Part shown: one piece after another, positions 15,423-53,345 of the stretch
Layout: each line of letters begins with the position of its first letter
Position numbering within the stretch: the first letter of the stretch is position 1
Assembly (NCBI GenBank): GCA_965218435.1
Contig: CBDCKW010000005.1
Span: 256,001-320,000 of the forward strand
Length of the DNA stretch: 64,000 nt
DNA from: Truepera sp.
GTDB lineage: Bacteria; Deinococcota; Deinococci; Deinococcales; Trueperaceae
Direction of reading: 5' to 3'
Position numbers and translations under genes: made by a program
Notes under the pieces: generated by a model
Seen by the model: only the letters and a program-made list of their open reading frames with translations
Told to the model about the DNA's origin: nothing
The model's database searches: none

Positions 15423-16206
15423 ATGGAAACAGTTACTTCCAAAGATGGCACGACGATTGATTGCATTCGATAAGTCAGGGCAGGGAGAACCTGTCATCTT
15501 GGTGTGCGGTGGGTCGGTCGATCACACCTCGAACGCACCGCTGGCGGCACGGCTCGCTGAGCATTTCACCGTCTACAACTACCACCGGCGGGGTCGGGGT
15601 GACAGTGGCGACACGCAACCCTACGCGGTGGAGCGTGAGGTCGAGGACATTGAGGCTGTTATCAACGAAGCGGGCGGTTCGGCGTTTTTGTACGGCACCT
15701 CTTCGGGCGCGGCACTGGCACTCGAGGCCACTCGTCAACGCCCGACCAAGATTACGAAGCTGGCGATGTGGGAGCCACCCTACATCCTCGACGAAACGCG
15801 CCGACCCCCAGCAGACACCGCGAGCGTCTATACCCAACTGGTCGCCGAGGGACGCCGGGGTGACGCCGCCGAGTACTTTATGACTCAGGTCGTCAGGATG
15901 CCACCCGAATTTGCCGCGAACGCGCGAAGCCAGCCCTGGTGGGCGGCGCAAGAGGCTTTGGCCCACACCCTCGCTTATGACGCTACCGTTATGGGTGACT
16001 ATTCCTTGCCCGCCGAGCGCATCGCCGAAGTTGAAACCCCTACCCTCGTGATTGACGGCAGCACGAGCTTCCCCTTCATGCACGAAACGGCGGACGCCGT
16101 TGCCGAACTGCTTCTTAGGGGACACCGCCGCACCTTAGAGGGCCAGCAGCACAACGTTGACCCGACAGTCCTTGCACCTGCGTTAGTCGAGTTTTTCGCT
16201 TCTTAA
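15423..16206 (+). CDS. Alpha/beta hydrolase; native start frameshifted by a 4-bp duplication, alternative ATG at 15445
   Basis: RBS+METVTSKDGTTI, then GATTGATT; downstream RRGRGDS, GTSSGA, GQQH. Confidence 0.8.
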
Positions 16207-16259
16207 TTCGGTTTCTAATCAAGTCTCAAACCATCAGTAAATAGGAAAAGGAGAAGGTT

Positions 16260-16940
16260 ATGCAACAAACTTTTTCAAATGACGTAAGCAACCGTGCAGC
16301 CTCGAATGCGAGGTTAACAAAAACCCTCCTCGCTTGTGCCGTCATTGCAGGCCCTTTCTACCTTGTCGTGGGCCTGATTCAAGCGTTTACGCGCCCTGGC
16401 TTCGACATCACCCGGCATGACCTCAGCTTGTTAAGCAACGGTACTTTGGGCTGGATTCACATTGCAAACTTGATTCTTACGGGTCTGCTCGTCATCGCCG
16501 GGGCGGTTGGAATGAGGCGGGTTCTGCAGGGCAGTCGTGGCGGAACCTGGGGACCGTTGCTCATCGGCGTCTACGGTTTGGGCCTCATCGGTGCAGGCAT
16601 CTTTGTTGCCGACCCAGCCTTGGGTTTTCCGCTCGGGACCCCCGCCGACGCGAACGCCATCAGCGGGCACGGTCTGCTGCACTTCGTCTGTGGTGGCTTG
16701 GGCTTTCTTGCCTTCATCGCCGCGTGTTTCGTGTTTGCCCGCCGCTTCGCTGCGTCAGGACAAAAGGGATGGCAAGTGTTCTCTGTCGTCACGGGGCTCA
16801 TCTTTTTAGCCGGTTTCTTCGGAATTGCCGCAGGGTCGGGCAATGGCTGGACCCTCCTGGGTTTCTGGATTGCGGTCGTCGTCGCTTGGGCGTGGCTTTC
16901 AGTGGTAGCGAGTCGGTTACGGCGAGAGATTGCTTGCTAG
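16260..16940 (+). CDS. DUF998 family membrane protein
   Basis: RPGFDITRHDLSLLS.G..GW...FVADPALGFP. Confidence 0.85.
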   Translation: MQQTFSNDVSNRAASNARLTKTLLACAVIAGPFYLVVGLIQAFTRPGFDITRHDLSLLSNGTLGWIHIANLILTGLLVIAGAVGMRRVLQGSRGGTWGPLLIGVYGLGLIGAGIFVADPALGFPLGTPADANAISGHGLLHFVCGGLGFLAFIAACFVFARRFAASGQKGWQVFSVVTGLIFLAGFFGIAAGSGNGWTLLGFWIAVVVAWAWLSVVASRLRREIAC

Positions 16941-17037
16941 GTAGTGGAGAGGGCTACAGGGCTGAGGCAATAAGGAGCATCACTACAGTCGTCCAACACA
17001 ACACTTAAAAAGGCAACCCAAAGCCAGGGAGGATTGT

Positions 17038-17970
17038 ATGAAAAACGTAGCTGCAAAACCCGGTATCAGCCTCGAGTTCAAGCTGATGAGGACACTGACT
17101 GCTTTCGTCGCGCTAGGTTTGGCAACCCAGACGTTCGGTCTTGCTCAAACTGAAGGAACAGAGATGAACAACGTTCAAGGCAAGTATGCGGAAGTGAATG
17201 GCCTCAACTTATACTACGAAGTCCACGGTATGGGTGAACCTCTGGTGCTGCTACACGGCGGTGTCGGAGCTCTCGAGATGTTTGGTGAAGTGTTGCCCAT
17301 GCTGGCTGACCATCATCAGGTCATCGCGGTGGATTTACAAGCCCACGGACGTACCGCCGACATCGACCGCCCCCTCTCTTACGAGGCGATGGCCGACGAC
17401 GTTGCGGCGCTTATCAGAAAGCTAGGTCTCGAGCAGGCCGACGTGATGGGCTACTAGCTCGGGGGTAGCGTCGCGCTGAGAACGGCGATTCAGCATCCCG
17501 AGGTGGTGCGTAAGCTCGTCGTCGTGTCGGCAGCCTTCAAGCAAGATGGTTGGTATCCCGAGATTCTTGCAGGCGAAGCTCAGATGAACGCTCAAGCAGC
17601 CGAGGCCATGAAACCCACACCGCTTTATCAGCTCTACGCTAGCCTTGCGCCCCGCGTCGAGGATTGGCCCGTGCTGATTACGAAGTTGGGTGACCTTTTG
17701 AGGCAAGACTATGACTGGTCGGACGACGTAAAACAACTCAAAAGCCCAACGCTCCTCGTCTTTGGTGACGCCGACGCAGTTCGCACTTCACATGCCGTGG
17801 CGTTCTTTGAACTCCTAGGTGGCGGTCAGAGAGACGGCGGCTATGACGGCTCGGGGATGTCCGCTTCGCGGCTGGCGATTCTGCCAGGGATGACGCACTA
17901 CACCATCTTCTCGTCTCCTGAACTGGCAGCAACGGTCATTCCCTTCCTCGACGCGCCTATGCCCCAGTAG
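17038..17970 (+). pseudogene. Alpha/beta hydrolase with TAG at the nucleophile codon
   Basis: GGC TAC TAG CTC GGG GGT = GY*LGG at 17455-17457; frame continues to 17970. Confidence 0.85.
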
Positions 17971-38752: not shown

Positions 38753-39055
38753 GCAATACGGTAGAGCAAGTCTTCCGCTAAAATACATCACCGGTTCCAT
38801 TTTGCATTTCTCAACTTCGTATCTACGTACGGGAGGTTGCAAGCTGTAAAGGGTAGTGGATTCAAGCTCCGATATTCAATCGCTCTCTCGCCTGCTCCAA
38901 CATGTCACGCGCGATACGGTTGGGGCTGTAGCCCCCAGTCATATGGACAAAGGGTATTTCCCCGCGCTTTACACGTCTGCGCCAACTCTTGGTGAGTATG
39001 GTTCGACCAGCGAACGAGCAGTAAAACGACGGCCACCTCGTCGGTAACTTCTAGT

Positions 39056-40101
39056 AAATCATCTGCGAAATAGCGCCGAAGGAGTCAAAGGACTAAACTA
39101 GCAGGATGAAAGCGAGCCGCTTAAAGAGAAAGCCCAAGCATCTGTATAACTTCACAGGTTTAAGCGTCGAGCAGTTCAAGTTGCTTAGTAAAGCGGTCGA
39201 AGTACGCCTTGCCGAACCAAAAGGCACCCAGGGCAAATTACGTCAACGTGCAGTAGGCGGGGGACGCAAGGCAGAACTAGGGGTAGAGGATCAGGTTTTA
39301 GGGGTGCTGCTGTATTACCGTTTGTACCTGACCCAGCTGCTACTAGGCTACTTATTCAACTTGGATGATAGTAACGTCAGCCGTTTGATCAGCAAACTTC
39401 GACCTGTACTACTTGAGGTTCTCCCCTTACCAGCGCACGAGACAGTTCTTTTTGGTCAAGCTAAAAGAAAGCGTATCGCAAGCCTAGAAGAACTGCTTGA
39501 GCAGCATCCTGAGTTCAAGGAAGTCTTGGTTGATGCTACCGAGCAAGAAATCCAGAAACCCAAAGACAAGCAAGAACGCAGAGACAAGTATTCAGGTAAG
39601 AAAAAGCGACATACGCTCAAGACCCAAATCACTGCCACCAACACAAAGCTTATCCTTCATGTGACACGTTCTTTACCAGGCAAATTCAGCGACGTCAACG
39701 TCCTTAGAGGTACCGGGGTGTTACGAGCTTTACCTACGGCTACCGAGGTCCGAGTGGACAAAGGATATGACGGTATTGATAAGGATTTTCCCCATAGAAC
39801 CTTCCATCAGCCCAGCAAAGCTAGAAGAAACAAACCCCTGGACTTCATCCAGAAATGCCTCAACAAAGTTCAAAACAGCCTGCGTTTTCCTGTCGAGCAC
39901 ACACTGGCTCACTTGAAACGCTTTAAGCTCTTAGCGGGTATCTACCGAGGCCCAAAAGCTGTTTATGATGACACTTTCTTAGCTATCGCGGGGCTTCATA
40001 ACTTCAGAAAGTTAGATGCTCTGGCTTGGTAAGCCGACTTAAACCCTTTCTCTAAGCCTAGCTACTTTATTCTGATCGTGTACTTATTTCGCAGATGATT
40101 T
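39056..40101 (+). mobile_element. IS5-family element (HTH + DDE transposase 39106..40032)
   Basis: Terminal IRs AAATCATCTGCGAAATA / TATTTCGCAGATGATTT, AGT on both flanks; VDATE, YSGKKKRHTLK, DKGY, R..VEH. Confidence 0.9.
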
Positions 40102-40231
40102 AGTTCAAGTAAGCTCAAATTGGTATGCGGCGCAGTTTCTAGCTACCTAATCTGGCAGGCAAAAGCCGTCCCGAGCCGTCGTTTAAGCCAGCTCAACAGC
40201 TGCGCTGGTGGTCTCGAGCCTGGCGGTAGGC

Positions 40232-41035
40232 TCAAAGCTCAGACCCTCCTCCGCGAGAATGCACGCGCGTATAGTGCGCCTTAGCTTTGCCGAGGCGTCG
40301 CCAGAGGTCGGGGTCAATAGGGATAGGCCGGACACTCCCGCTAGCGAGCGAGTAGAACGCCCCGTGATAGGTCAGCGTCCCGTGCCGCAACAGCTGCCAG
40401 AGCAGATTTAGAATAGTTGTTGCAGCGAAGTCGTTGACCAGTAGGTCTTGCTTTGTAAGCGCCTCGAGCGTGCTACAGCTGGGCAGGTCGTCTTCGGGAA
40501 TACGCGTGTCGCAGAGTTCGGGAAAGAGTTCGTACGCGATGCGTAGGCGCTCTTGCTTCCGGCGATTGTAGTAGCCCAGGGGTTGTCCCAGCACGACCTG
40601 ACCGGTGCTGGCAAGATTCCCGGCAGAGACGTGGTAGACGACCCGGTGGAGCCCCCCTGCAATCGTTGCCCTGGCTGCGCGTGTATCTACGCAGTCAATT
40701 ACTAACCTTGGACTGTCGTAGCCGTTTCCGTAGCTGCTGTCGATCTCATGTGGGTAAGCTTTCCACGAAAGGTTGAGGCGGTTGATCAAGACCTCGGCTT
40801 TATTGAGACCCACATCTGATGGGTAGAAGCTCTGCCGGACGAGGTTACTTTCGCTTACGGTGTCGCCGTCGGCGAGGACGACCTCGAGGCCGGGATAGCC
40901 GAGCGCCCGGAGACCCTGGTGGATGTTCTTGAGGCCGACGACGACCTTCGAGCCTGTCCCGCCAGCACCCACAACGAGCGTTCGGATGGGCATTCTGGAG
41001 TCTTGAAAGTACGGGTGCAAGGTGTGGCTAAGCAT
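40232..41035 (-). CDS. PRTRC system ThiF (E1-like) protein
   Basis: GAGGTGS, DGDTVSESNLVRQ, DCVDT, PSCS..EAL.KQDL. Confidence 0.85.
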   Translation of the reverse strand: MLSHTLHPYFQDSRMPIRTLVVGAGGTGSKVVVGLKNIHQGLRALGYPGLEVVLADGDTVSESNLVRQSFYPSDVGLNKAEVLINRLNLSWKAYPHEIDSSYGNGYDSPRLVIDCVDTRAARATIAGGLHRVVYHVSAGNLASTGQVVLGQPLGYYNRRKQERLRIAYELFPELCDTRIPEDDLPSCSTLEALTKQDLLVNDFAATTILNLLWQLLRHGTLTYHGAFYSLASGSVRPIPIDPDLWRRLGKAKAHYTRVHSRGGGSEL

Positions 41036-41747
41036 GAAAGAGGTCTCCGAGTGTTTCAGTAAGGGGAACCAGCTGCTCAGTAGGGAAGTGGCCCTCTTCT
41101 CTGACCCGCTGCCAGAGTTCGCCCATCGTGCCGCCCCAGTTGCGGTAGAGCAAGTTCGATGAGCCGTGAGTAAAAGCCGAGGCGAAAAAACCGCTCGAGT
41201 ACCCTGCGGTGTCTTTCACACTCAGCGTGTCAGGTAGCGACGTTGACCCTAAACAGACGCCGCTAGTCGAAGTGTTCCAATAGGGCGCAGTGTAGAGCCT
41301 CGAGGCTGCGGTGGGGCGTTCATCGTTGTCTAAAGCCAGCACCCGCAGGCTTCTGTGACCTGCGATAAAGAGCAGGGGAGGCTGCGGAAAACTCGAGCCC
41401 GAAAGCTGCGTGAGCAGGGGGTCATTACATGCATAAAACATCACCCGCTCCCTAGCAGGCTCGAACCACACGAGGTTCTCGTTGTTGGCGGCCAGGACGT
41501 GCGGCGGCAGCAGCTCGAGGCCGGACACCGGACTGAGGGCTTGAGAAAGTTCACGGACGGCCTCGACGTTTGCGAGGGTGCCTGGCTCGAGCATAGGTGT
41601 CGCGCCGTCGTAACGCACTGTGTGGACCGACGCGAAGGTGTCTGCGGGTGCGCCGTAGGTGTCGCAGGCATTTTCGTAGATCAAAATGGCCTTTTTAAGC
41701 ATGACCTCGTTGTGATAGCCGAGTTGTACCTGCACGTCGATACTCAT
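41028..41747 (-). CDS. PRTRC system protein B (prokaryotic E2-related)
   Basis: A.LIY...FASVH.V...LLPP.VL...PQPPLLF...RP....LY.AP.WN....VCLG...FF.S.FTH. Confidence 0.8.
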   Translation of the reverse strand: MSIDVQVQLGYHNEVMLKKAILIYENACDTYGAPADTFASVHTVRYDGATPMLEPGTLANVEAVRELSQALSPVSGLELLPPHVLAANNENLVWFEPARERVMFYACNDPLLTQLSGSSFPQPPLLFIAGHRSLRVLALDNDERPTAASRLYTAPYWNTSTSGVCLGSTSLPDTLSVKDTAGYSSGFFASAFTHGSSNLLYRNWGGTMGELWQRVREEGHFPTEQLVPLTETLGDLFHA

Positions 41748-41911
41748 GCCATCGCCTCCAGGGCGTAAAAGAGTGCGTTCGTCTGTTCGAGGATGAGCCT
41801 ACACACCGTTAGGGCGTCTTTTAGAGTCGTCAGCGTTTCGGGATCGTCAGGGTCGAAGCCAAGGGCGTAGGTTGGTTGAAAGTCCGTTCCCGCCTGCCAG
41901 ATCTGCTGCTC
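41744..41911 (-). CDS. PRTRC system protein F, exon 2
   Basis: EQQIWQAG...LEAMA*, in frame with exon 1 after intron removal; ATGA overlap with protein B. Confidence 0.75.
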   Translation of the reverse strand, partial: EQQIWQAGTDFQPTYALGFDPDDPETLTTLKDALTVCRLILEQTNALFYALEAMA

Positions 41912-44320
41912 ATCGGGTAAGGAGACGGCATCACTGCCGCCCCCTCCCCTCAGAACCGGACGTGCCTCTCTCAAGGCATCCGGCTCAAGCAGAAAATGAA
42001 GCATCAAAGGAGTAATTCTCTCGTAGCTCGGGGAAGATTATCTTTCACCGAGCCGTGGACTTGTTGGTGACAGGTTAGATGCAGTATCCGCTGTTTTGCA
42101 AAGTCATGCCGTGCTAAATTCTTTTGGTCAGTAATCAAGTGATGACGATGCAGTGGCTCACCGTTATTCAGCGAACCAAAACACACGGGGCAGATAAAGT
42201 CGTGTTGCTTAGCCACCTCATAGTGAAGACCTGAGAGACCGGAGTACTTTCGACTTCTCTTTGCCCAATAGTTTTTCTGCAAGGCGTCATCGGGTGCAGC
42301 AAGGTTGAATACCAACCGATGCCGCGTGATTTTGAACCAAGCGAGCTTCGCCAGATAAGTGTTGCCGTCGGGGTCGCCAAAGACCCACCGAGCTTTTCTT
42401 AAGTGATGATGCTGCCCAAAGTATTTAGCTACGCGCCAGCCAACCGATTTTGTCGGGTGTTGCCATCTTATCCACTTGACCAGCTTTTGGAAGAGCCAAG
42501 AGTCAAGCGAGGCAAACACCTTTGCTGACGAAACGGGTTGAAAATAACGCGCCCAACCACGTAAAACGGGGTTGAGATGGTGGATGAGCACCTGAGCATT
42601 GTGCCCCCTTAAGCGCACAAACATCTCGGTAAGCTTTTTCTTGAACCTTGCGATTGAAGCGTTGCTGGGTTTGACAAGCCCGACGACCTTTTCTGGGTTA
42701 TCTCTCCGCTGATAAAGCCGGAAATTACACCCAAGAAAGTCAAAACCTCCCGTGAGATGCCTGATCTGGGTTTTAGCCTCGTTGAACACGAGTCCCCGAT
42801 CTGCAAACCACGTTCTCAGCTTTGTGCGAGCTTGTTCTGCTTCCTCACGAGTCTTGCAGAAAACGATAAAGTCGTCTGCATATCTCACGAGACCATAGCG
42901 GTTCTTACTGGATGTCTGACCATTGGCATAACGAGCAATACCAAGGGTCGTTTCCATGCCGTGAAACGCTATGTTAGCCAGCAAGGGACTAATAACACCT
43001 CCCTGCGGAGTACCCGCAGGCGTATCGTGCTTGACGGTACCGTCCATGAAGCCTGCCTTTAGCCACTGTTTAATCAGTTCCTTGGCGGGAAACTGACCGA
43101 TGGCCTGCAACAGGTGGGTATGGTCGATATTGTCAAATGCCCCTTGGATGTCTGCATCCAGTATCCACTGCTTAGTAGCGCGTGCCCTGCAATAGCTATA
43201 GGTCATACTCAGGGCGTCGTGGGTACTTCGCCCTGGTCTAAAACCGTAGCTACTTGGCTCAAAGCGAGCCTCCCACTCAGGTTCCAACGCATTTTTGACG
43301 CGTGCTTGATGAGCCCGGTCGCCAATGGTTGGTATCCCAAGCGGGCGTTTAGCACCACTTTGCTTCGGGATATAAATCCTGCGCGCAGGTTTGACATGCC
43401 AAGGTTGGGACTCTAGCAATTTGTCTACTAGAGCGGCCTTGGCTTTCGAGGTTAAGGCAACCTCTTTATCCACCCCTGCGGTTTTTCCACCCGCATTGTC
43501 CACAGTGACGCGACGGACGCTAACAACAGTGTTGGCGTAACTCCGTAGCATCAGCTTTTGGAGAGAACGAACCTTTTTAAGGTTCCCTTCCTTTGATGCC
43601 CTAAAGATTCTCTGTCTCAAGTTGCGTACCTGCCGATTGGCGCTACGCCAGTCAATGACCTGCCAATCGGTCGGGCTTTTGGTTCCGTTTGCTAAGCTTG
43701 GCGCTTGCATCTAACTTGCACCTCAATTCGCAACTTTCACGTTGGTCTTTAGGATTTCCACCAGTCCCGCGTCAGCTCCCTTTCAGGATGGGTATGCCCG
43801 TCATACGGCCCTATCCGGTGGGTTATGAATTCCCCGTGCCTTTCGGCTACCGGCTTTCGCTTTTCGGGACTTCTTGTTCCCGCTGGAGGGTTGTGCCTCG
43901 CTTGCGCTTGGCCTACCACTTGTGTGGACTCCATCGGGGTTTCCACGTTCCGCACGTAAGAGATGTGATCGGTTGCGGATGCCTTTTGTACCCCGGGTTC
44001 TTGGTGCCCTTGCATGAGCGCTATGCACCCATGACGCCGCGCAGCTTGAACACAGAGCTACGCCTTGAACCATGATCGTTTTGCTGTCGTCCAGCGATCT
44101 TTCTACCTTACGAGGCTTACAAAGGTTCACTTTCGTTCATCCTTCCGATCTTCTCCTTGCCTGTGGCCTTTTGACGACTAACGGCTCTTGGGCTTTCATT
44201 CGGGCTTCGCACCCTGTCGTTACCAACAACGCACGCCGAATGTGGAGATAGGCTTCAGGCACTCGCCTAGTTCAACCCTATGAGGGTTGAACACTCTTAC
44301 TGTGCGACTTCGTGTCGCAC
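41912..44320 (-). mobile_element. Group II intron 1 (IIB/chloroplast-like), 2409 nt
   Basis: 5' GTGCG; domain V GAGCCGGATGC...GCACGTCCGGTTC, domain VI, end TTACCCGAT; candidate EBS1 (44016-44021) and EBS2 (44057-44064) pair with exon 1. Confidence 0.95.
42004..43710 (-). CDS. ltrA: Group II intron reverse transcriptase/maturase with HNH-like C-terminus
   Basis: RPLGIPT..DR, GFRPGRS, GTPQGG.ISPLL.N, YADD, domain X, CPVC...HH...CH. Confidence 0.95.
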   Translation of the reverse strand: MQAPSLANGTKSPTDWQVIDWRSANRQVRNLRQRIFRASKEGNLKKVRSLQKLMLRSYANTVVSVRRVTVDNAGGKTAGVDKEVALTSKAKAALVDKLLESQPWHVKPARRIYIPKQSGAKRPLGIPTIGDRAHQARVKNALEPEWEARFEPSSYGFRPGRSTHDALSMTYSYCRARATKQWILDADIQGAFDNIDHTHLLQAIGQFPAKELIKQWLKAGFMDGTVKHDTPAGTPQGGVISPLLANIAFHGMETTLGIARYANGQTSSKNRYGLVRYADDFIVFCKTREEAEQARTKLRTWFADRGLVFNEAKTQIRHLTGGFDFLGCNFRLYQRRDNPEKVVGLVKPSNASIARFKKKLTEMFVRLRGHNAQVLIHHLNPVLRGWARYFQPVSSAKVFASLDSWLFQKLVKWIRWQHPTKSVGWRVAKYFGQHHHLRKARWVFGDPDGNTYLAKLAWFKITRHRLVFNLAAPDDALQKNYWAKRSRKYSGLSGLHYEVAKQHDFICPVCFGSLNNGEPLHRHHLITDQKNLARHDFAKQRILHLTCHQQVHGSVKDNLPRATRELLL

Positions 44321-45325
44321 ATACTCGCCGTAGACCTCCCGCACCAGGTCGTGGTCGCCGCCAAGCGTGACGATAACGCCAAAAGGCAGTTCGCCCTCGA
44401 TCAGGTCGTCAATGTGCCGGTCGCGTTCAGGGAGCGCCCCTTGCAGTTCAGCAAGTTTTTCCAGCGCTGTGATGATGGGCAATGCCTGCTCGAGCTTCTC
44501 AGTGCAGAGACCCCTACACCTCTCGAGGCTTAAAGCGCCGTGTTCCTGGTAGCGGGGCTCGAGGCGCGCATCGACCTTTTGGCTGGTCAGGAAGTGTTCC
44601 TGGGCGTAGGCAACGACATCCTCGTGGGTAAAAGCTTCTTTCCTGTCGCTAAACTGGTACTCGAGTTCCTCCTCGGCTTCTTCCAGCAACATACTGTCGT
44701 CGTCCATTCCTTGCCAGTAGTGCCAGCGGATGATGTCTTTGGCGACTTCGGGTGTAAACGCCGGGGTCAGGTCGAGCGTGCGGTAGACGTGCCCGAGGAT
44801 GCTCGGGCCGAGCTGCGGCTCCAGCTTGTCGAACGCCGTCGCCGCCGCGTCAAAGGAGATGACCGGAACGCCGCCGACGAATACCAGCAGGTAGTGACGC
44901 CCTTGTTCCTCGAACTTTGCGACCCGAAATGCGAGGTCGAATCCCGGATAGCCGAGGCTGTTGCCGAGCGTTCGGGTGATGGCCTTCTCGATGAGTGCGT
45001 TCGGGCTGCTGTAGGGCGCGTCGTCGCACTCGTGGACGAGTCCGACCTCGAGTAGCCTCAGCGCGAGCTGAGCCGAGGCAGCCTGCTCATTGTCAAGGCT
45101 GTAGTGCGAGGGGACACCCTCCAGCCGGGGAAGCGCTAGTCCAGCATAGGCAGGGAGGATGAAGGTGGGCGTTTGGCGGGTTTTCCTGTCCGACTGCTCA
45201 GCCGGGCGAGAAGCTGACCGACGGCCTGCGCGTGCGGGTCCTTGAGGTAAGCCTGCACGAGGGGTGGGTTGTGCGTTTTGCCCGAGGTGCTCCGGGCGAG
45301 TTCCTCTCCGAGTGTAGACACGCAT
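44321..45325 (-). CDS. PRTRC system protein F, exon 1
   Basis: AAAGGAGG RBS; LALPRL..VP motif, YWQG.DD acidic segment; position upstream of B and ThiF. Confidence 0.7.
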
Positions 45326-45450
45326 AAGCCTCCTTTGGCAGATAAATGCAGGGCAACTTCGGTTGCCCTGGAAACTTATACCCAGGTTCTAAATGCACAT
45401 TACGGCTTGGCTGAGACTGACTTTAAGCTGCACCTCGAGCCGTGTGCCAA

Positions 45451-45936
45451 TCAACGTCCTTCATTGGCAAGTCGTGCGTCGAAGCGGAAAGACCGGGGAG
45501 CCTCGATGGTCAGCTCTGTGAACTGCGGGTGTTCGGGGTTGAGCAGATAGTTCCGTTCCTCGGGCACGATGACGCTGGGGACGGCTAAGGCGACGCTTGC
45601 CTGCGCCGCCAGCCACGCATCCCCAACTCGCCTCGCACCGTCGCTGACCGCCCTTACCTGCCAGTCTTCGGGCAAGTCCTGCTGGCGCAGCTCGAGAACG
45701 AGCCGTTCGGGAATCGCGAGCTTGAAAACCACGTACTCCCGCTCGAAGCGCCGCCTGTCGGCGTGAACCAGCGTTTCCAGCGCGGCGAGTGACAAACTCC
45801 CACTGACGTAGACAACGCGTCTACCCGGTGTGTTCCAGCGTCCGCCGAAACGCCGTGCGCCTTCACCGTTAAAGGCGTCGGCTCGGCTGCCATACCTGGA
45901 TCTGACGAGTCGCCAAGCCGTGAACACCTCAGCCAC
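45451..45936 (-). CDS. RES domain toxin (MbcT/ParT-like)
   Basis: WRL...GEGA.RFGGRWN...Y.S.S.SLA.LE..VH...VPS.IVP.E.NYLLNP.H. Confidence 0.92.
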   Translation of the reverse strand: MAEVFTAWRLVRSRYGSRADAFNGEGARRFGGRWNTPGRRVVYVSGSLSLAALETLVHADRRRFEREYVVFKLAIPERLVLELRQQDLPEDWQVRAVSDGARRVGDAWLAAQASVALAVPSVIVPEERNYLLNPEHPQFTELTIEAPRSFRFDARLANEGR

Positions 45937-45956
45937 AAAGGTCGTTGAAACGCCGG

Positions 45957-46391
45957 TTAACTGTAAATGCCGTAGTCGATCCGCCCGAGCAGGTTCTCGA
46001 CCTCTCTTGCGCCGATCTCGGTATCGGCGTAGCCCAGCGGCGTGAGGTTGCCCAGGCTCAGATTTGGTGTTTTAAGCCACGCCGCTGCGTCACCGACGTC
46101 TTCAAATACCTGTGCGGCGCGCTCGAGCAAGTTGGCCAGGCGGAGTACGTGTTCGCTTTCGTCCGGGGCCAACCGGCCTGCACGCTTACGGCGGGTCAAC
46201 GTGGTTCCGCTGATTCCTGCCAGGTTTGCAAGCATCGCGTCGCTGACGCCCAGTGCCTCAGCGAGCGTGCGAAAGACCTGAATGGGCAACCCGCTCCTTA
46301 CGACCTCAATCAGGTCACGTGGGCGGTTCGTCAGACCTAACGTCTGTAAGACGCCCGTTGACCGAAACGGGGGGGGAACAAATGCATCCAT
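45957..46391 (-). CDS. Xre/MbcA/ParS antitoxin
   Basis: GLP...TL.RRK..G.L...ESE...W...PN.SLG..TP...V..LL.RI.YG.YS. Confidence 0.92.
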   Translation of the reverse strand: MDAFVPPPFRSTGVLQTLGLTNRPRDLIEVVRSGLPIQVFRTLAEALGVSDAMLANLAGISGTTLTRRKRAGRLAPDESEHVLRLANLLERAAQVFEDVGDAAAWLKTPNLSLGNLTPLGYADTEIGAREVENLLGRIDYGIYS

Positions 46392-46522
46392 ATGGTTAGT
46401 TTAGCATAGCCATGTGAACCGTAGCAAAAATTTTTGAAACCAAGAAGACGTTTGCAGGTCGTATATACGCATGTAAGGGTTGTTTATACTTTTAGGTGCG
46501 AGGATGGCAGGCTGTCGTGCTG

Positions 46523-46975
46523 TCATGGTCGTCGATACTCCCAGATGCTCACGGTGTCGGGCAATGTATCCAGCAGTTTGAGGACTTGGGCTCGAGGTAA
46601 ACCGCCCTGCCCGATACCAGGGAAGTTGAGGTAAACCTGTGCTGTAAGGTGGCGCTCGCACCAGCGTCGTAGCTTGGTGGCCGCCTCGCTGATAAGGCTG
46701 AGCTGGGCCGGGTCTTTCCAGTGCAATTTCGTCTGAAACGCCCCGAGTTTCGCCTCGGGCCAGCGCGGGCTCACGAGCAGCCCGTAGTGTTTACCCTGCT
46801 CGAGAACGGCTTTGCCGAGTGCTTGGCCGGGACCAGGGAAGCGGTCACGGGCTTCTTTAGCAATACCAGCTCCCATCACGAGCTTGCCTTGCAAGGTCAA
46901 GGTCGCATTGGCCGTAATGAGAAAGAGGTCGGCTTCGGAAAAGACCGACCACATATCGCCTTGGCGCAGCTTCAC
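46523..46975 (-). CDS. Macrodomain protein (DarG/TARG1-like)
   Basis: GD.W, VMGAGIAK..R.RFP, FQTK.HWK, PGIG.GGL; AAGGAGG RBS before GTG 46975. Confidence 0.8.
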   Translation of the reverse strand: MKLRQGDMWSVFSEADLFLITANATLTLQGKLVMGAGIAKEARDRFPGPGQALGKAVLEQGKHYGLLVSPRWPEAKLGAFQTKLHWKDPAQLSLISEAATKLRRWCERHLTAQVYLNFPGIGQGGLPRAQVLKLLDTLPDTVSIWEYRRP

Positions 46976-47155
46976 GTTGCACCTCCTTGAAGCTATGCTG
47001 CACCCTAAAGTGCAAAGCTGTTTTATGAGGTCGTAGCAAGGCGGCTTTGGAGCCGCTTGCAAGAGGGTATCGAGACGTTTCTACAGCGTTTTGGAAAAGA
47101 CTTTTCAGGCATGGCAGACCGACGTCCTTTTGGAAATCTTAGCCCCAGAGTAAAC

Positions 47156-49550
47156 GCTGGGTAAAGAAGTGGCATTACTGCCACTCCCTCCCCTAAGAAC
47201 CGGACGTGCGAGTTTCCCCGCATCCGGCTCAAGCTGTTCAAAGCCCCGGTGTTGGGGCCAGTTTCACAGCGTCGAATCGTCGGCTATGAATCTGACTATG
47301 GCAGTTGGGATGGATCATCAGCAAGTTGGATTGTCGATTATCACCGCCGCTGGCTCGTGGGATAATGTGATGGACATGCCATCCCTGTTCTCCCGTAAGC
47401 TTTTGGCGGCATACCGGACATGTTCCTCCTTGTTTTAGCCAAAGGGAACGCAACCTCTGTCGTCCGTCTAGTGAGGTCCTCATTTTGAAGGTCAAACGCT
47501 CTTCAAAGTAGGCTTCCCACCGGGGGTCGAACGGGTTGGCCTCCGTTTTGACCTTGATGTGTCGCTTAATGGGTACGTCGCCTGCGTTAAACAGTCTTGT
47601 CCATTGAGGCGTTCCATCGTTTAGGGTTTCCCCTGTTTTCGCCGCGAATACCCAGTTCCGGCTTCCCTTAGAGATGAAGTATTTATCCTTCAACCAGTGA
47701 GTGCCTTTGCCAGGATGACGGCGTTTTATCCAGCGCCATAGGGTTTGCCAAAGCTCTTTATTCACTGACTGAAACGTTTCGCTAGCAACAACATGTCTGT
47801 GATAGTTTGCCCATCCGCGTATCACCGGGTTGAGTTGTTTAATCACATGGCTTTGTTTTGCCGTTGGCTGACGTTTCACGATTTCTCTGACTTTATCCAA
47901 GAACGTCTTGACGCTCTCTTTTGACGGCTTAATGAGTAGCTTGCCGTCGTACTTGCGGATATTTTGCCCTAAGAAATCGAACCCCTCTTCGATATGGGTG
48001 ATTTTGGTTTTCTCTTGCGAGAGTTCCAAACCCCGAGCTGCCAGAAACTTGGTAATCAGGGGTTTAACTTCATTTTCTAACAACTCTTTTGAGTAGCCAG
48101 TCATAATGAAGTCGTCTGCATACCGAATCAGATTGACCTTCTAGGTGAATCGTTTTCCATCAACCGTTTTCCGTTTGAAGCCTTTGGTTAACAGGCATTC
48201 GAGGTCATCCAGGGTCATATTCATCAACGTTGGCGAGATGGGGCCGCCCTGCGGTGTCCCTGCCTCTGTTGGGTAGAGGGTCTTGTTGTCAATGAACCCA
48301 GCCTTCAGCCACTTGCGGAGCGTTACCTTGTCCGTGGGGATATGGTTCAGCATCCACTCGTGCTGAATCGTGTCGAAGCAGGCTTTGATGTCACCTTCCA
48401 GAATCCACTGAGCAGACGCTTTTGTTCCGAGGGAGTTAAAGCACCCTTCAATGGCGTCTGCCGTGCTTCGTTCTGGCCTGAACCCATACGAGTTCTTATC
48501 CGCTGTGGTCTCCGCGACGGGTTCGAGAGCCAGCAGGTAAAGTGCCTGCATCGCTCTATCCTTCATCGTGGGAATACCCAGCGGGCGCATCTTGCCATTG
48601 CTCTTAGGGATGTACACCCGCCTCAGCGGGCTTGGTTTGTAACCATGCCGTTTGAGGGACACGATGGCTTGAGATTTGGCCGCCGGGGTGGACCAGGTTG
48701 CCCCGTCTACACCCGGCGTGTTCTTGCCTTGATTCTCCGTCACTCGCCTGACAGCTAAAGCTTTGGCCGAGAACGAGTGGGTCAGCGTCCACTGCAAGGC
48801 TTTCACCTTGCCATGTCGGCCTTCCTGTGTCGCCTTTACAATACGCGCCTGGAGTTTCCTCACCGTTTGGTAGCACTTGGCCCAGTCGATGCTGTGCCAG
48901 TCCACGTTTGAGTGGGAGGATGCACACGCTTTAGCGTTCATTTGCCTTTCCTCCTTAAGAGATTCTTCAAGCTCCCTTGTAACGAACAACCATACGGAAG
49001 TCTGCCCGCTTTCGCGTGGGGTGATGTCGCGGCTGCTCAACCCCTATCTGCCCCATTACAGAGCAGCGTTCGCTTTCTCCGCGCTCCTCTACCCACAGCC
49101 CTATCGGCCCGCCTTGCGGCTTGCTTTCCTTTACAGGAGGACTATGGGCTTACCGTGTTTCATCTAAGTAACAACGATGGGTTAGACCCTGCCTCTTCAC
49201 CGGTGGCCGTTTTATCCGTGTAACCCCAGCCAAGAACAGGGTTAACTGAGCCACGTACCTTTTGGTTCAAGCCTGTCAGCGTCTTTGGCTTGTTCTTGAT
49301 GACGATGTTTATCAGCAGTTCACATGTGTTGGTCATACCATCGAGCCCAGTCCCCTGACCGCTTTACGCTAGCAGCCAACGCTTTTACCTCACGGTTCGT
49401 GCGTAATCTTTCGATTCGGGTACTCTTTTCTCGGCAGCTTCACACCAGAGCGTTACCACCCTCGCATGTGCCGATAGGCTACTGTTGACGGAACAACAGG
49501 TTTTGTCGTCAGAGACGCAAAACAATTACTTAGACGACTTCACGTCGCAC
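47156..49550 (-). mobile_element. Group II intron 2 (IIB/chloroplast-like), about 2395 nt
   Basis: 5' GTGCG at 49550; domain V GAGCCGGATGCGGGGAAACTCGCACGTCCGGTTC; end TTACCCAGC; candidate EBS1 CUUGGC (49229-49234) pairs exon end GUCAGG. Confidence 0.92.
47238..49040 (-). pseudogene. ltrA: Intron 2 RT/maturase/HNH interrupted by one in-frame TAG (48141-48143)
   Basis: ...DGKRFT*KVNLIRYADDFIMTG...; both halves otherwise open, HNH intact. Confidence 0.9.
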
Positions 49551-49558
49551 CCTGACCT

Positions 49559-50107
49559 TCAAGCCGCACGGAGCACCTCCACCTCGGGCAGCTCGCCCGC
49601 TACCAAAGCTTCCCTGACGGCTTTCTCCAGGTTGACGACCGCGAGCTTGAGTTCGTAGGCGTGAAGCCGCTGCGAGCGGAGCTTCTTGACCATCTCCTCG
49701 GCTAGTGCGTGCTCCCACAACCACGTCTTCCACGAGTTGTGGAGCGGCAGGCGGAGCTGCCGAGACAACAGCGTGTAGAAGCACTCTGGCAGGTCCTCTT
49801 CGTGTTCGCAGATGACCAGCTCGCCTCGCAGCACGGTTTTCGAGAGCAGGAGGCCGTGGAAAGCGCCGGACGGGAGGCGTTCGGTCAGCAGCTTGCCGCC
49901 GTCTTGCGGGTTCATGCGGACGCTCCAGGTCCTTACCTCGTCGTGAAGGACAGTATTTTCACCTTTCATAAGCCGCGCCCAGATGGCCTTGACCGCCTCG
50001 CGTGAGCCGACCAGCGACAGGAGGTGAGCGTAGCCTTCTCTGCCGGTGCCGAACACGGCCTCGTCGACGTGGCACGCAAAGCCCTTAGTCTTTAGTAGCG
50101 GGACCAT
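49559..50107 (-). CDS. Hypothetical protein (182 aa) of ICE/plasmid type
   Basis: LLSLVGS..AVKAIWA.L...LPL..SW..WLW; resembles proteins that precede DUF6094 methyltransferase/helicase genes (from memory, unverified). Confidence 0.6.
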   Translation of the reverse strand: MVPLLKTKGFACHVDEAVFGTGREGYAHLLSLVGSREAVKAIWARLMKGENTVLHDEVRTWSVRMNPQDGGKLLTERLPSGAFHGLLLSKTVLRGELVICEHEEDLPECFYTLLSRQLRLPLHNSWKTWLWEHALAEEMVKKLRSQRLHAYELKLAVVNLEKAVREALVAGELPEVEVLRAA

Positions 50108-50111
50108 AACT

Positions 50112-50282
50112 TTACCGTTCGAGCCGGAGCGACAACCAGCGGGTCCCGTAACGTGCGGCGGCTCGCCTGTGGGCGGGCCGAGCGGCGGAGAGCGACGTGA
50201 AGCGCCGGGTGCGACCTGTTTTGCGGTAGGTGAGTACCCAGCCTTTTGCCTGTCCAGCCTTACCATCAGCGTGTTTGTCCAT
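50112..50282 (-). CDS. Small basic hypothetical protein (56 aa, below the ORF-track cutoff)
   Basis: AAAGGAAGG RBS, MDKHADGKAG...WLSLRLER*, stop 4 nt before the next ATG. Confidence 0.55.
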   Translation of the reverse strand: MDKHADGKAGQAKGWVLTYRKTGRTRRFTSLSAARPAHRRAAARYGTRWLSLRLER

Positions 50283-50367
50283 ATGAGGCACCTTCCTTTC
50301 GAGAAGTTGCCCCCGTGCTGCTCGCGCGAGCGAGCGTCCTTTTTAAGTTGTGTACGGAGCTTGATGC

Positions 50368-50610
50368 TCAGGGCTGGTCGTGCGTCCGTTTGGTGCGTCT
50401 CACCCAGCGATAAACGAACCAAGAAGGAACCGACACGAACCAGAAGAACGTCAAAAACGTGTCGACAATGCTTTGCCTGAACACCGATGATATAGGTCTC
50501 GGCAGGCCGTAGGGTTTGAGCCGGAAACGGTCCTCTGCTCCCGCCCAGAGGGTTAGGAGAAACCCCGACCAGTAGACGACGAATAGTACGGTCTCCAGAA
50601 TGTTGTTCAC
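50368..50610 (-). CDS. Small two-TM membrane protein
   Basis: GAGAGGA RBS+GTG; two aromatic-rich hydrophobic segments. Confidence 0.6.
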   Translation of the reverse strand: MNNILETVLFVVYWSGFLLTLWAGAEDRFRLKPYGLPRPISSVFRQSIVDTFLTFFWFVSVPSWFVYRWVRRTKRTHDQP

Positions 50611-50683
50611 ACCGATCCTCTCGGCGACTACAAGCGGTGTAACCGTCTCTCATTCTCGTCACCGTCGTACAAGCGGGGTCGCC

Positions 50684-51175
50684 TCAGTTGAGGTTTTGCT
50701 GCTCCGCTCGCCTTTTAAGTAGTCCGTCGATACGCCGGACGATGCTGTCGAGGGTTGCCTGCGCTTCCTTGGAATCTTGTAAGCTCACCTGCACGTCGTT
50801 CTCGCCGAACTCGAGCCGGGGCTCGCCGTTACCCAGCCGCTCACGCACGAAGGTCAAACCCTGCACGTAACCGCTGAGCTGCGCGACCTTGGTCTCGAGG
50901 GCCAGGTAGAGCGCCAGTTCATCTCGCTCGAACGCTCTACTACGCTCGGCCTTAAGGCGTTCGAGCGCGATCTGAGCGTCTTCGAGGCTCCGGTCGAGTT
51001 CAGGCAAGATGCCGTCCAGTTCGTCTAAATCGTCACGGTAGTCTTCACCTGGCAGCGCGCTGCCGAGGATAAACACCTCATCGTCCGCTTCATAATAGAC
51101 CTGGCGTTTGACATCGTGCTCGTCCTCGGTCTCGAACAGCCCGTCTCGGTCTTTATCTTTCATGAGCTTTAGCAT
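50684..51175 (-). CDS. Acidic coiled-coil hypothetical protein
   Basis: GAGGAG RBS; heptad-like helices. Confidence 0.7.
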   Translation of the reverse strand: MLKLMKDKDRDGLFETEDEHDVKRQVYYEADDEVFILGSALPGEDYRDDLDELDGILPELDRSLEDAQIALERLKAERSRAFERDELALYLALETKVAQLSGYVQGLTFVRERLGNGEPRLEFGENDVQVSLQDSKEAQATLDSIVRRIDGLLKRRAEQQNLN

Positions 51176-51290
51176 AACGTTGTCTCCTCGTTTGGGTGTA
51201 AGAAAGGGAGAAGAACCTAAACCAGGTTTAGGTTCAGGTTCTTCGTCGACACGTTATACGAGATAACGTGCCCGCCTGAGTGCTCAGGTC

Positions 51291-52592
51291 TTAGGCAGCG
51301 TTCACAGTCTGCTCGAGCTTCTCAAAGCCGTCTATGATGCTCGGAATCATCCGGGCATTCTTGGCTGCTTCAAGTCTCGCGTGGGCAAGAGCTGCGACAA
51401 CACCTTTCGGCGCTTTACTTTCACCTTGCTCGAGCTGCGTTTCAAGCAAGGTGACGATGGTCTCGGGAACGTCGGCTTCCGCTTCGTCCCTGACCTCGGC
51501 ATCATCGGCGGCGAGAAGCTCACTACGAGCTTTCACCTCAGCGGTGACTTTCTCGGTCGTTTTGCGACTTTCGAGCCACCTGTCCGATGGTGCTTCTGTG
51601 GGCCAGCGAGGACCCTGGGTACGTGGTGCCGGTTGTACCCTTACGCCTTTGCCAAGCACCTCTGCCCAGTAACCTGCACTCCCACCGCGACCACATTTCT
51701 GCGGCGGCAGCGGGGGCACGAAGTCACTTACCTTCGGCCCGCCTGCCAGCTCAGCTAACGCGTCCTGGTAACTTACTTCACCCGCTTCGGAGACAAGCTC
51801 GTCGGCACGTTCGGCGACCAGAGCGCGTTCTTCGATGTCGTCTTCATCACCAAAGTGGGGTGACGAAAGCGGATCGAGGTTGCGGCTGGTGTCTCTGACA
51901 AACCGCGCGTGCTCAAAGCTCGGGGCTGAAGCACCGAACAAAGAAACGCGGCGTATCGGATCACGGGCGTCGAGTTCGGCGGCTTCTTTCCAGGTGATGT
52001 CGGCCTTGTACCCAAGACGCTGTATCACCCCGAAGTCCCGACCGCTGTTCTGCATGAAGTCTTCTTCAAGGTCCCACGGCGCGACTTTGGTCAGCGTAAG
52101 TGACCTGGTCAGCGGGTGGGTGCGTTTGACGAGCGTGTGCCAGCCATTTCTGGAGGCGGACTGCTCATCCCACAGCTCTCGAAGAAGCTCTTTGAGAACG
52201 CGGCGGTGGTTTCTCTTGCAGCGGAGGTCTAAACGACCCGAAGCTGCTGCGGGGGCGACTTTGTTCACCACGAACTTGGCGAAGTTCGGATTGTTACGCA
52301 GCCGCTGCCCGAACTCTTTCCTGACCATCTGCTCACGCGAACGCCGGTTGACGTCGTCAGCAGAGGACGAGTAAAAAGAGAAGAGCACCACATCCGAATT
52401 CACGAGGCGGACGAGGAGCCTCATGGCGAGAGGGCGGACGTCATCGGGACAGACAAGTCGAACGTTTCCGTCCAACACATCTGCTGCTCTCTTACGAGCT
52501 TCCTGGGCAAACTTGGCGTCTGCCTGATAGCGCCCCAGAAACCCTTTGACACTCTGACCAAACACAAACGTATCCTCCTGCTGGTTTTGCAT
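51291..52592 (-). CDS. Hypothetical protein (433 aa) with a duplicated N-terminal domain
   Basis: AGGGGAAGGGG RBS before ATG 52592; no family recognised. Confidence 0.7.
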   Translation of the reverse strand: MQNQQEDTFVFGQSVKGFLGRYQADAKFAQEARKRAADVLDGNVRLVCPDDVRPLAMRLLVRLVNSDVVLFSFYSSSADDVNRRSREQMVRKEFGQRLRNNPNFAKFVVNKVAPAAASGRLDLRCKRNHRRVLKELLRELWDEQSASRNGWHTLVKRTHPLTRSLTLTKVAPWDLEEDFMQNSGRDFGVIQRLGYKADITWKEAAELDARDPIRRVSLFGASAPSFEHARFVRDTSRNLDPLSSPHFGDEDDIEERALVAERADELVSEAGEVSYQDALAELAGGPKVSDFVPPLPPQKCGRGGSAGYWAEVLGKGVRVQPAPRTQGPRWPTEAPSDRWLESRKTTEKVTAEVKARSELLAADDAEVRDEAEADVPETIVTLLETQLEQGESKAPKGVVAALAHARLEAAKNARMIPSIIDGFEKLEQTVNAA

Positions 52593-52914: not shown

Positions 52915-53345
52915 CTACGCGTCGAACAGCTCTCTAATCGGTAGTTGCCATCCCGGTACGACCTCGCCGCCGTCGAGGGTGTCGTCTACATCCAGCACCT
53001 TGACATCGGCGTCGGGGGTGTGAACCGAAACCTGCTGCCTGCGCGGATTGACGACGACCATGCCGGAACCCGCTTCCAGCCACTCGGCCACCTTGTCGCT
53101 TACCTCGGTATAGAGGTCGTTAGGGGAGACGACCTCCACGGCTAGGTCGGGCGCACCGGGCCAGTAGCCCTGCACCGGACCAACTTCGTCGAGTCGCTTC
53201 CGGCTGATGAAGGCGGCGTCGGGGGCGCGGACGGTGTCGGGATTGCTGGCGAGCTTGAAGCCAGTCTCGGCGGCATAAACCTCGCCGAGCTTGTTGGCCC
53301 TTAGTGAGTATCGAGGAGTGTCCCAAAGTTCATCGCTAAATTTCC
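52915..53345 (-). pseudogene. Uma2 family endonuclease, 5' deleted and frameshifted
   Basis: AETGF.L...DTVRAPD.AF...APDLAVEVVSP.D...W...G...V.P. Confidence 0.85.

Follow-up and report, generated by a model that had tools for sequence, protein, structure and literature searches.

A co-oriented gene run on a Truepera megaplasmid is probably a mosaic of mobile-element modules, with a gene order that points to intron-associated deletion

PRTRC cassettes, classified as type 6d (TIGR03734-TIGR03742; Iyer, Burroughs and Aravind 2006, PMC1779556, in the portion drawn on here), are widespread on plasmids and integrative and conjugative elements. The canonical order on pENH92 of Cupriavidus necator is ParB-E-C-F-B-A-ThiF, in which C is ubiquitin-like, B is E2-like, A is a JAB peptidase, and ThiF is E1-like, and the cassette on pDFI3 of Deinococcus ficus has the order E-C-x-x-x-B-ThiF, contains no A, and is located beside ArdC, SSB, and TopA. 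Here, we analyze a stretch of 64,000 nucleotides from Truepera sp. (the window; C5:256001-320000), in which a run of genes that ends with PRTRC F, B, and ThiF is placed on the minus strand from 52592 to 40232. The nine contigs of the host assembly are referred to as C1-C9, of which C9 is the 3.94-Mb chromosome and C5 (684,834 bp) is the window's own replicon, a 685-kb megaplasmid. An earlier interpretation made from the nucleotide letters (the sequence-only reading) had described the run as an establishment or counter-defence module and a candidate for an undescribed system. The co-orientation is real, as confirmed by the coordinates and by family scans, but the run is probably, though by no means certainly, a mosaic of separate mobile-element modules that most likely act independently and not as one system. 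The idea of a wholly new system is not borne out: the supposed orphan genes, macrodomain, toxin-antitoxin pair, and E1/E2 genes are modules that can be separated from one another, and their order appears to have been made by deletion.

Similar to type 6d, B and ThiF in the window score above the curated cut-offs, and the gene for an F-like helical protein immediately precedes B, its stop codon overlapping the start codon of B. The order B-ThiF without a JAB gene resembles that on D. ficus pDFI3. However, the window differs from type 6d in that it lacks ParB, E, C, and A, that F falls below its cut-off and is split by an intron, and that a RES-Xre pair and a macrodomain gene occupy the place expected for E and C. 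Relatives of B are present on 179 plasmid records (68 conjugative, 51 mobilizable, and 60 non-mobilizable), in agreement with the earlier statement that PRTRC genes occur on plasmids, and the B protein of the window is at most 35% identical to any of these matches. No functional study of PRTRC was found, and among the papers listed by a full-text literature search none was mechanistic, several of them being matched through the name of the Rhizobium plasmid pRtrCIAT899.

The evidence for a deletion comes from a group II intron (intron B) placed between the macrodomain gene and a gene for a 182-aa protein (o182). The 5′ end of the intron, GTGCG, directly follows the first six codons and 1 nt of a DUF6094 methyltransferase gene, the start of which overlaps the stop codon of o182, and the rest of the methyltransferase operon is gone. 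The 3′ flank is not methyltransferase sequence and resembles, by eye, the region upstream of a second macrodomain gene on contig C4. Short contigs only are available from two other, closely related organisms (roughly 90-95% identity), here called B and C. In both, o182 continues into an intact methyltransferase N-terminus, with the divergence from the window at 49552, and the contigs that cover the region upstream of the macrodomain gene diverge from the window exactly at 47155/47156, the 3′ end of intron B. No empty site bearing both flanks of intron B was found when the contigs of organisms B and C were compared. Since the intron is flanked by exons of two loci, the most plausible explanation is that two intron copies recombined and the intervening DNA was lost, and we infer that such a recombination between two copies of intron B caused the deletion. 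The present gene order thus appears to be the product of an intron-associated deletion, of which intron B, with exons from two loci, would be a concrete case. Intron B is otherwise like bacterial group II introns in its D1-D4 and D5/D6 domains, its reverse transcriptase (RT)/maturase open reading frame (ORF), its GTGCG start, and its sense orientation inside a gene, and it differs from the usual ones in that the flanking exons come from different loci. The intron-hit remnant of the sequence-only reading is indeed intron-derived, but the intron RNA is full-length, and it is the intron-encoded protein that is broken into two ORFs, at 48141-49040 (299 aa) and 47238-48104 (288 aa).

The components of the run are also distributed independently in relatives. 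None of 29 related loci (L018-L046, metagenome contigs) that carry an o182 relative (0/29) contains the macrodomain, Xre, RES, or this F, and the upstream genes occur elsewhere without the macro-Xre-RES-F-B-ThiF block. The DUF6094 methyltransferase is located directly 3′ of o182 in 26 of the 29 loci, as identified with a local hidden Markov model (HMM), the remaining three contigs ending at o182, and a SNF2 helicase comes next after the methyltransferase in 17 of the loci (Pfam support). Searches with the helicases and methyltransferases of the relatives gave generic matches only. Organisms B and C also have the macro-Xre-RES-F-B-ThiF block, with the pieces ThiF-B-F, F-RES-Xre, and Xre-macro present on contigs at roughly 90-95% identity, so that the genes do co-occur outside the window, as the sequence-only reading expected of a system, while the o182 loci do not share the block.

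A likely older arrangement is visible on C4 (17 kb; L007 1-17002), which has the order DUF6094 methyltransferase, SNF2, TPR/GGDEF, macro, further genes, PRTRC E, PRTRC C, PIN, and F, with the PIN gene where the window has Xre-RES. One end of C4 is located 13 codons downstream of the methyltransferase site that holds intron B on C5, and the other end is 37 nt beyond a copy of a second intron, intron A, inside F; the contig is cut at both ends, and the B and ThiF genes of its cassette were not found in the assembly. The genome G137 has the order o182, methyltransferase, SNF2, further genes, E, C, F, B, and ThiF, and G137 and C4 likely show the undeleted ancestral order. The loci L041 and L042 have the order C, x, B, ThiF, o182-like gene, methyltransferase, and helicase. 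In L042, SIR2 and SIR2-TIR genes are located on the opposite strand a few kb downstream of this row (15472-17578). The o182 gene may accordingly be described as an unnamed but well-conserved gene that leads a DUF6094 methyltransferase-SNF2 operon, which often neighbours PRTRC.

Genes for ArdC, SSB, TopA, SNF2 helicase, and an orphan DUF6094 methyltransferase neighbour the relatives, as do toxin-antitoxin pairs. An enrichment of such gene classes, orphan antitoxins and toxin-antitoxin pairs among them, in the leading regions of plasmids has been reported (Samuel and Burstein 2024, PMC11541004, in the part drawn on here). Like the islands described there, the relatives carry an orphan methyltransferase, SSB, toxin-antitoxin pairs, an orphan antitoxin-like gene, and many unknowns on one strand. 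The window is unlike such islands in that the methyltransferase is destroyed and that no relaxase or type IV secretion system (T4SS) gene was found on the replicon among the three families searched. Consistently, and as noted earlier, a domain scan of the 71 other ORFs in the window gave no relaxase or T4SS domain. At the genome level, VirB4 (PF03135) and the TrwC-type relaxase (PF08751) had no matches, other relaxase families and oriT not having been searched, and the coupling protein (PF02534) had its sole match on C3 and none on C5.

The segment 1-53299 of the window has a co-linear second copy at C5:13456-63562 (86-99.6% identity), which contains neither intron A nor an insertion sequence (IS) found beside ThiF. 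It served as an internal control and, for some genes, as the source of the ratio of nonsynonymous to synonymous substitutions (dN/dS) between paralogues; for F, B, ThiF, RES, and Xre the differences are too few for this ratio to be used. The comparison reveals that PRTRC F is split by intron A at codon 335/336. The intron has the bounds GTGCG...GAT, with an exact empty site at C5:54795-54800 in the second copy, and organisms B and C bridge 41910 to 44320 without it. The joined exons encode a protein of 390 aa that shares 99% identity with the product of the uninterrupted copy (C5:54634-55803). The RT/maturase of intron A scores 341.9 bits against TIGR04416 (cut-off 300), and both the D1-D4 and D5/D6 models of Rfam were matched.

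Four copies of intron A are present in the genome. The copy on C4 is located at the same codon of an F homolog that is only 36% identical, and two more are inserted in sense orientation in metallophosphoesterase-like and integrase-like ORFs (C5:561092-563511 and C9:775352-777776). All four sites encode Y or H, then E, across the junction. Intron A shares its ribozyme domains, RT/maturase, GTGCG start, and sense orientation inside a gene with bacterial group II introns, and differs from the usual ones in occupying the same codon in two F genes of 36% identity and also two unrelated ORFs.

The assignment of F itself is less firm in terms of score, with 25 bits against TIGR03742 (cut-off 58.4), 24% identity to the F of C. 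necator, and no Pfam match of the spliced protein at E up to 5. Its position directly upstream of B is as in C. necator, 2 of 17 clusters of relatives are named PRTRC protein F by the Joint Genome Institute (JGI), and the protein is full-length (388-392 aa) in 7 of the 17 clusters, down to 50% identity. An F query matched 2 of 364 genomes of the phylum, its own included. The C-terminus of F was considered as a conjugation end and rejected, as it is not conserved. The gene order given by the sequence-only reading was thus right for ThiF, B, RES, Xre, the macrodomain, and the upstream genes o433, o163, the 56-aa basic protein, and o182, while its F is F-like below the cut-off, its two-transmembrane (two-TM) ORF is doubtful, and intron A was missed.

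The residues expected to be important for B and ThiF are retained. In B, Cys165 is invariant and, downstream of it, the histidine of F-T-H is kept in three of four aligned sequences, the window copy included, and the nucleotide-binding glycine motif of ThiF is intact. PADLOC matched ThiF with weak E1-E2 models only. A patch of 64 nt in ThiF (40700-40763) differs from the second C5 copy by 26 substitutions and a 12-nt gap, and since organisms B and C hold the 12 extra bases, the window copy is the odd one; the patch resembles a small gene-conversion event within a loop of this E1-like protein. In the trio F-B-ThiF, successive genes overlap at their ends.

The ubiquitin-like protein C, however, is missing from the run. 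A whole-genome family search (TIGR03738/Prok_Ub) together with a local HMM matched only C4:5085-5360, tblastn with three C proteins gave no match in the run, and no ubiquitin-like ORF was found downstream of ThiF. Protein E (TIGR03741) has its sole genome match on C4 and none in the run. The JAB peptidase A (TIGR03735) was matched neither in this genome nor in the control genomes, and the four genome matches to PRTRC ParB (TIGR03734) are all below the cut-off (best 135.5 vs 278.6), with none in the window. In the whole genome, C and E are thus found only on C4, and B and ThiF only on C5, twice. The C proteins of C4 and D. ficus, both from JAB-less cassettes, end in Lys-Gly, while that of C. 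necator has a tail beyond the glycine. In at least three related organisms, the cassette has been able to survive as F-B-ThiF in the absence of a ubiquitin-like gene.

The macrodomain is similar to the solved DarG macrodomains (PDB 5m31, E 3.5e-6; 5m3i, E 5e-4) and to DarG in PADLOC (5.7e-8), and it shares 26% identity with the macro portion of the DarG encoded on the chromosome, with the stretches V-M-G-x-G-I-A and T-K-x-H-W common to both. It differs from DarG in that it has 150 aa without the C-terminal part (338-position model) and no adjacent DarT. Its score against the NCBIfam DarG model is 27.8 bits (cut-off 250), and Pfam at E up to 5 gave chance-level matches far below the cut-offs. 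DarT and full DarG are found only at C9:2149298-2151032 (L067), where a complete DarT (212 aa) and DarG (348 aa) both score above the curated cut-offs. The copy on C4 is 56% identical, aligned from residue 30, and has an internal TGA. Of 364 genomes of the phylum, 18 contain relatives of the macrodomain (E up to 1e-5), and some of these matches are embedded in longer open frames (325-546 aa). Published work describes orphan DarG-like enzymes with which phages counter host defence (PMC11825919, PMC11481870, PMC13309987, in the parts drawn on here), and unlike these, the macrodomain of the window is carried on a megaplasmid.

The RES-Xre pair is like the type II toxin-antitoxin systems of the RES-Xre class (ParST/MbcTA), with both proteins above the curated cut-offs and the antitoxin gene first, 20 nt upstream of the toxin gene, and nothing unusual was seen in the comparison with known systems. 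Five other, unlinked RES-Xre loci are present elsewhere in the genome, and for this reason the pair inside the PRTRC remnant looks like cargo.

The proteins upstream of intron B had been called orphans, but they belong to conserved families, with 69 homolog clusters for o182 and 39 for o433. The block formed by o433, o163, and o182 is syntenic in four of the 29 loci (L024, L025, L026, and L031), in which homologs of o163 (54-69% identical) come after o433 and both precede o182, with a partial copy of o163 in L027 and an SSB gene between o163 and o182 in L024. The o433 and o163 genes are absent from L022, L029, and L040, even though these contigs extend 4.4 kb or more upstream. Homologs of the basic protein adjoin o182 upstream in 6 of the 29 loci (L021, L024, L025, L026, L027, and L031; tblastn, 60-73%), and a profile search of the genome contigs with the o182 alignment gave one locus only. 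No family was assigned to any of the three larger proteins: for o433, Pfam at E up to 5 gave none and NCBIfam one chance-level match only, and for o163 and o182, Pfam at E up to 5 gave chance-level matches only, for both far below the cut-offs, and NCBIfam nothing.

Between the two genome copies, dN/dS is 0.13 for o182, 0.20 for o163, and 0.25 for the basic protein in frame, as compared with 1.26 and 2.98 in the other frames of the latter, and these three genes are under purifying selection (dN/dS 0.13-0.25). For o433 the ratio is 1.19, and its frame is preserved through a compensated frameshift. A longer ORF at 49559-50662 (o367) was rejected as a single gene, as its N-terminal 185 codons have a dN/dS of 1.11 and are not coding in that frame; since the last 182 codons have 0.13, the real gene is o182. 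The ORF at 49160-49336, inside intron B, was likewise rejected as the 56-aa basic protein, the real gene being that at 50112-50291. In the second C5 copy, a 207-nt deletion at 50479-50685 removes most of the two-TM ORF.

Structure prediction with AlphaFold2 gave a confident model of o182, with a predicted local distance difference test score (pLDDT) of 89.4, but no fold match above noise: the best match in a Foldseek search of the PDB had E 0.06, the best Z in a wide VIA-align search was 5.1 (noise guide 7-8), and the best match in BFVD, to unnamed proteins, had E 7e-3. The model of o433 was unusable (pLDDT 49.3), and the ESM Atlas gave no usable match. The o182 (end 49559-49564) and o433 (end 51291-51296) proteins, as well as most of their relatives, terminate in Ala-Ala; for comparison, among 2758 stop-to-stop open frames of 250 aa or more in the genome, 2.1% have this C-terminus.

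According to the sequence-only reading, the run is one integrated establishment or counter-defence system, in which ADP-ribose removal by the macrodomain, NAD+ consumption by RES, and conjugation by the PRTRC proteins cooperate during host entry. The genes are indeed co-oriented and tightly packed, organisms B and C retain the macro-Xre-RES-F-B-ThiF block, macro and F are linked on C4 as well, and relatives are found beside ArdC, SSB, and an orphan methyltransferase; leading regions are enriched in orphan antitoxins and toxin-antitoxin pairs (PMC11541004, the part cited above). As the context of the relatives fits an establishment-type region, that interpretation is partly supported. However, organisms B and C are close relatives and therefore add little independent support, and the parts travel separately. 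The independence of the parts, the deletion-made order, the lack of a ubiquitin-like gene, the terminator-like hairpins after o433 and after RES, and the lack of VirB4, TrwC, and coupling protein matches on C5 all argue against one integrated system, which we regard as quite unlikely. It is very unlikely that the run is instead non-functional debris of a decaying old integrated element that hitch-hikes with the RES-Xre addiction pair. The destroyed methyltransferase operon, the broken protein of intron B, the IS beside ThiF, the missing E, C, A, and ParB, the dN/dS of o433, the many fragmentary genes in the window, and the internal TGA of the C4 macro copy would all be expected of debris, but the low dN/dS of o182, o163, and the basic protein, the reading frames of the run that stay open in both genome copies, the F protein that is whole after intron removal, and the block kept in organisms B and C are difficult to reconcile with it.

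A functional PRTRC variant without its own ubiquitin-like protein is fairly unlikely. In such a variant, F, B, and ThiF would conjugate the PRTRC C of C4 or ThiS/MoaD, or else the C-terminus of a partner that is not ubiquitin-like, for which a protein of the o182 family is a candidate. CBASS Cap2 conjugates the C-terminus of such a partner, cGAS. The intact catalytic residues of B and glycine motif of ThiF, the end-to-end overlaps of the trio, its retention in organisms B and C, the full-length F in relatives, the o182-like gene directly after ThiF in L041 and L042, and the Ala-Ala ends of most o182 and o433 family members are consistent with this variant. The use of endogenous ThiS/MoaD by such operons has been suggested (Iyer et al. 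2006, PMC1779556, same portion). However, the use of a ubiquitin-like protein in trans is a proposal, the C-terminus of F is not conserved, the Ala-Ala pattern comes from two families only, and, since the B and ThiF genes of C4 are not in the assembly, the complementarity of C4 and C5 may be an assembly gap. Several of these findings also weigh against a mosaic of independent modules. The block kept in organisms B and C at roughly 90-95% identity, together with the full-length F in relatives down to 50% identity, suggests that the trio is under selection and may work with its neighbours, and macro and PRTRC F are linked also on C4, at 56% and 36% identity. The o182 family adjoins PRTRC-type E1/E2 genes in L041, L042, and G137, so that the upstream block and PRTRC may be functionally tied. 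Furthermore, the recombination between two introns is deduced from the flanks alone, and the conjugation negative for the replicon covers three families only. Since PRTRC and o182-operon parts are adjacent in four contexts (the window, C4, G137, and L041/L042), it is conceivable, though unlikely, that PRTRC E1/E2 cassettes and the o182-DUF6094-SNF2 operon form one recurrent establishment supermodule of mobile elements in the Deinococcus group, in which F-B-ThiF would act on a new substrate or with a ubiquitin-like protein made elsewhere, and the orphan macrodomain would shield the DNA of the element from the host DarT.

If the run is a mosaic, as we consider probable, its history and function may be outlined as follows. 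The region probably descends from a gene set of the establishment type, similar to a leading region, that belonged to a transmissible element and has since been cut down. In this set, the conserved block of o433, o163, the basic protein, and o182 would have led, as it normally does, into the DUF6094 methyltransferase and SNF2 helicase. Recombination between copies of intron B would then have removed the methyltransferase, the helicase, and whatever lay before the macrodomain gene. RES is predicted to break down NAD+ once the antitoxin Xre has decayed, an activity that would favour stable maintenance of the replicon, and the macrodomain is predicted to strip DarT-type ADP-ribose from DNA, the host chromosome having a full DarTG. 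After splicing of intron A, the activity of ThiF and B would require a ubiquitin-like protein in trans, for which the sole PRTRC C of the genome, on C4, with a product ending in Lys-Gly, is a possible source; the pair would otherwise be idle.

Table 1. Features of the co-oriented run and its flanks (positions in the window)
Feature	Coordinates	Strand	Remarks
IS element	39055..40102	+	DDE_Tnp_4 transposase at 39106-40032 (Pfam); just downstream of ThiF
PRTRC ThiF-family, E1-like	40232..41035	-	TIGR03736 232.9 bits vs cut-off 144.75
PRTRC B, E2-like (Prok-E2_D)	41028..41747	-	TIGR03737 151.4 bits vs cut-off 131.45
PRTRC F exon 2	41744..41911	-	Codons 336-390 and stop; stop overlaps B start
Group II intron A, 2409 nt	41912..44320	-	Intact 568-aa RT/maturase (42004-43710); Rfam D5/D6 at 41912-41988
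PRTRC F-like exon 1	44321..45325	-	Codons 1-335; boundary from empty site in second C5 copy
Terminator-like hairpin between RES and PRTRC F	45349..45370	-	9-pair stem; consensus match only
RES-domain toxin	45451..45936	-	NF049844 165.3 bits vs 110; Pfam RES 2.4e-33
Xre-family antitoxin	45957..46391	-	NF049845 116.3 bits vs 90; Pfam Xre-like-HTH, Xre_MbcA_ParS_C
Orphan DarG-type macrodomain, 150 aa	46523..46975	-	ORF open to 47062; start more likely 46975
Group II intron B	47156..49550	-	Rfam D1-D4 115.5 bits at 49351-49500; D5/D6 62.4 bits at 47156-47232
Methyltransferase remnant	49551..49569	-	First 6 codons and 1 nt; V-R-L-E-G-Q, like N-termini in L022, L031, L068
o182, 182 aa	49559..50107	-	69 homolog clusters; leader gene of o182-DUF6094 methyltransferase-SNF2 helicase operon
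Small basic protein, 56-59 aa	50112..50291	-	Directly upstream of o182
Doubtful two-TM ORF	50368..50610	-	No homolog in 29 related loci
o163, acidic helical protein, 163 aa	50684..51175	-	Conserved; the coiled coil of the sequence-only reading
Terminator-like hairpin between o433 and o163	51210..51244	-	14-pair stem and T-rich tail; consensus match only
o433, conserved hypothetical, 433 aa	51291..52592	-	39 homolog clusters, 57-93% identity
Uma2-family fragment, 86 aa	52915..53175	-	Pfam Uma2, 1.5e-12; upstream edge of conserved block

At the borders of the run, a Uma2 gene or fragment also precedes the o433 homolog in L031 and L024, and the similarity of the second C5 copy to the window stops at 53299. 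The IS downstream of ThiF has at least nine near-identical copies on C9. The second copy is part of a segment of about 63.5 kb that is present twice on C5 in the same orientation (C5:1-63562 and C5:242532-309299, corresponding at its end to window 1-53299). C5:1-400 and C5:242532-242931 match at 100% identity, which places the start of C5 precisely at a boundary of the repeat. The repeat may be a true duplication, or two related replicons may have been merged by the assembler.

Both ends of contig C2 (52.6 kb) match C5:175592-226735 in reverse orientation at 94-99.7% identity, which again suggests that parts of the replicons are redundant or repeated in the assembly. The window from 1 to 36000 is full of short or split genes, including fragments of alpha/beta hydrolase, APH, RibD_C, and BPD_transp genes and several IS pieces, and is a gene-remnant-rich part of the replicon.

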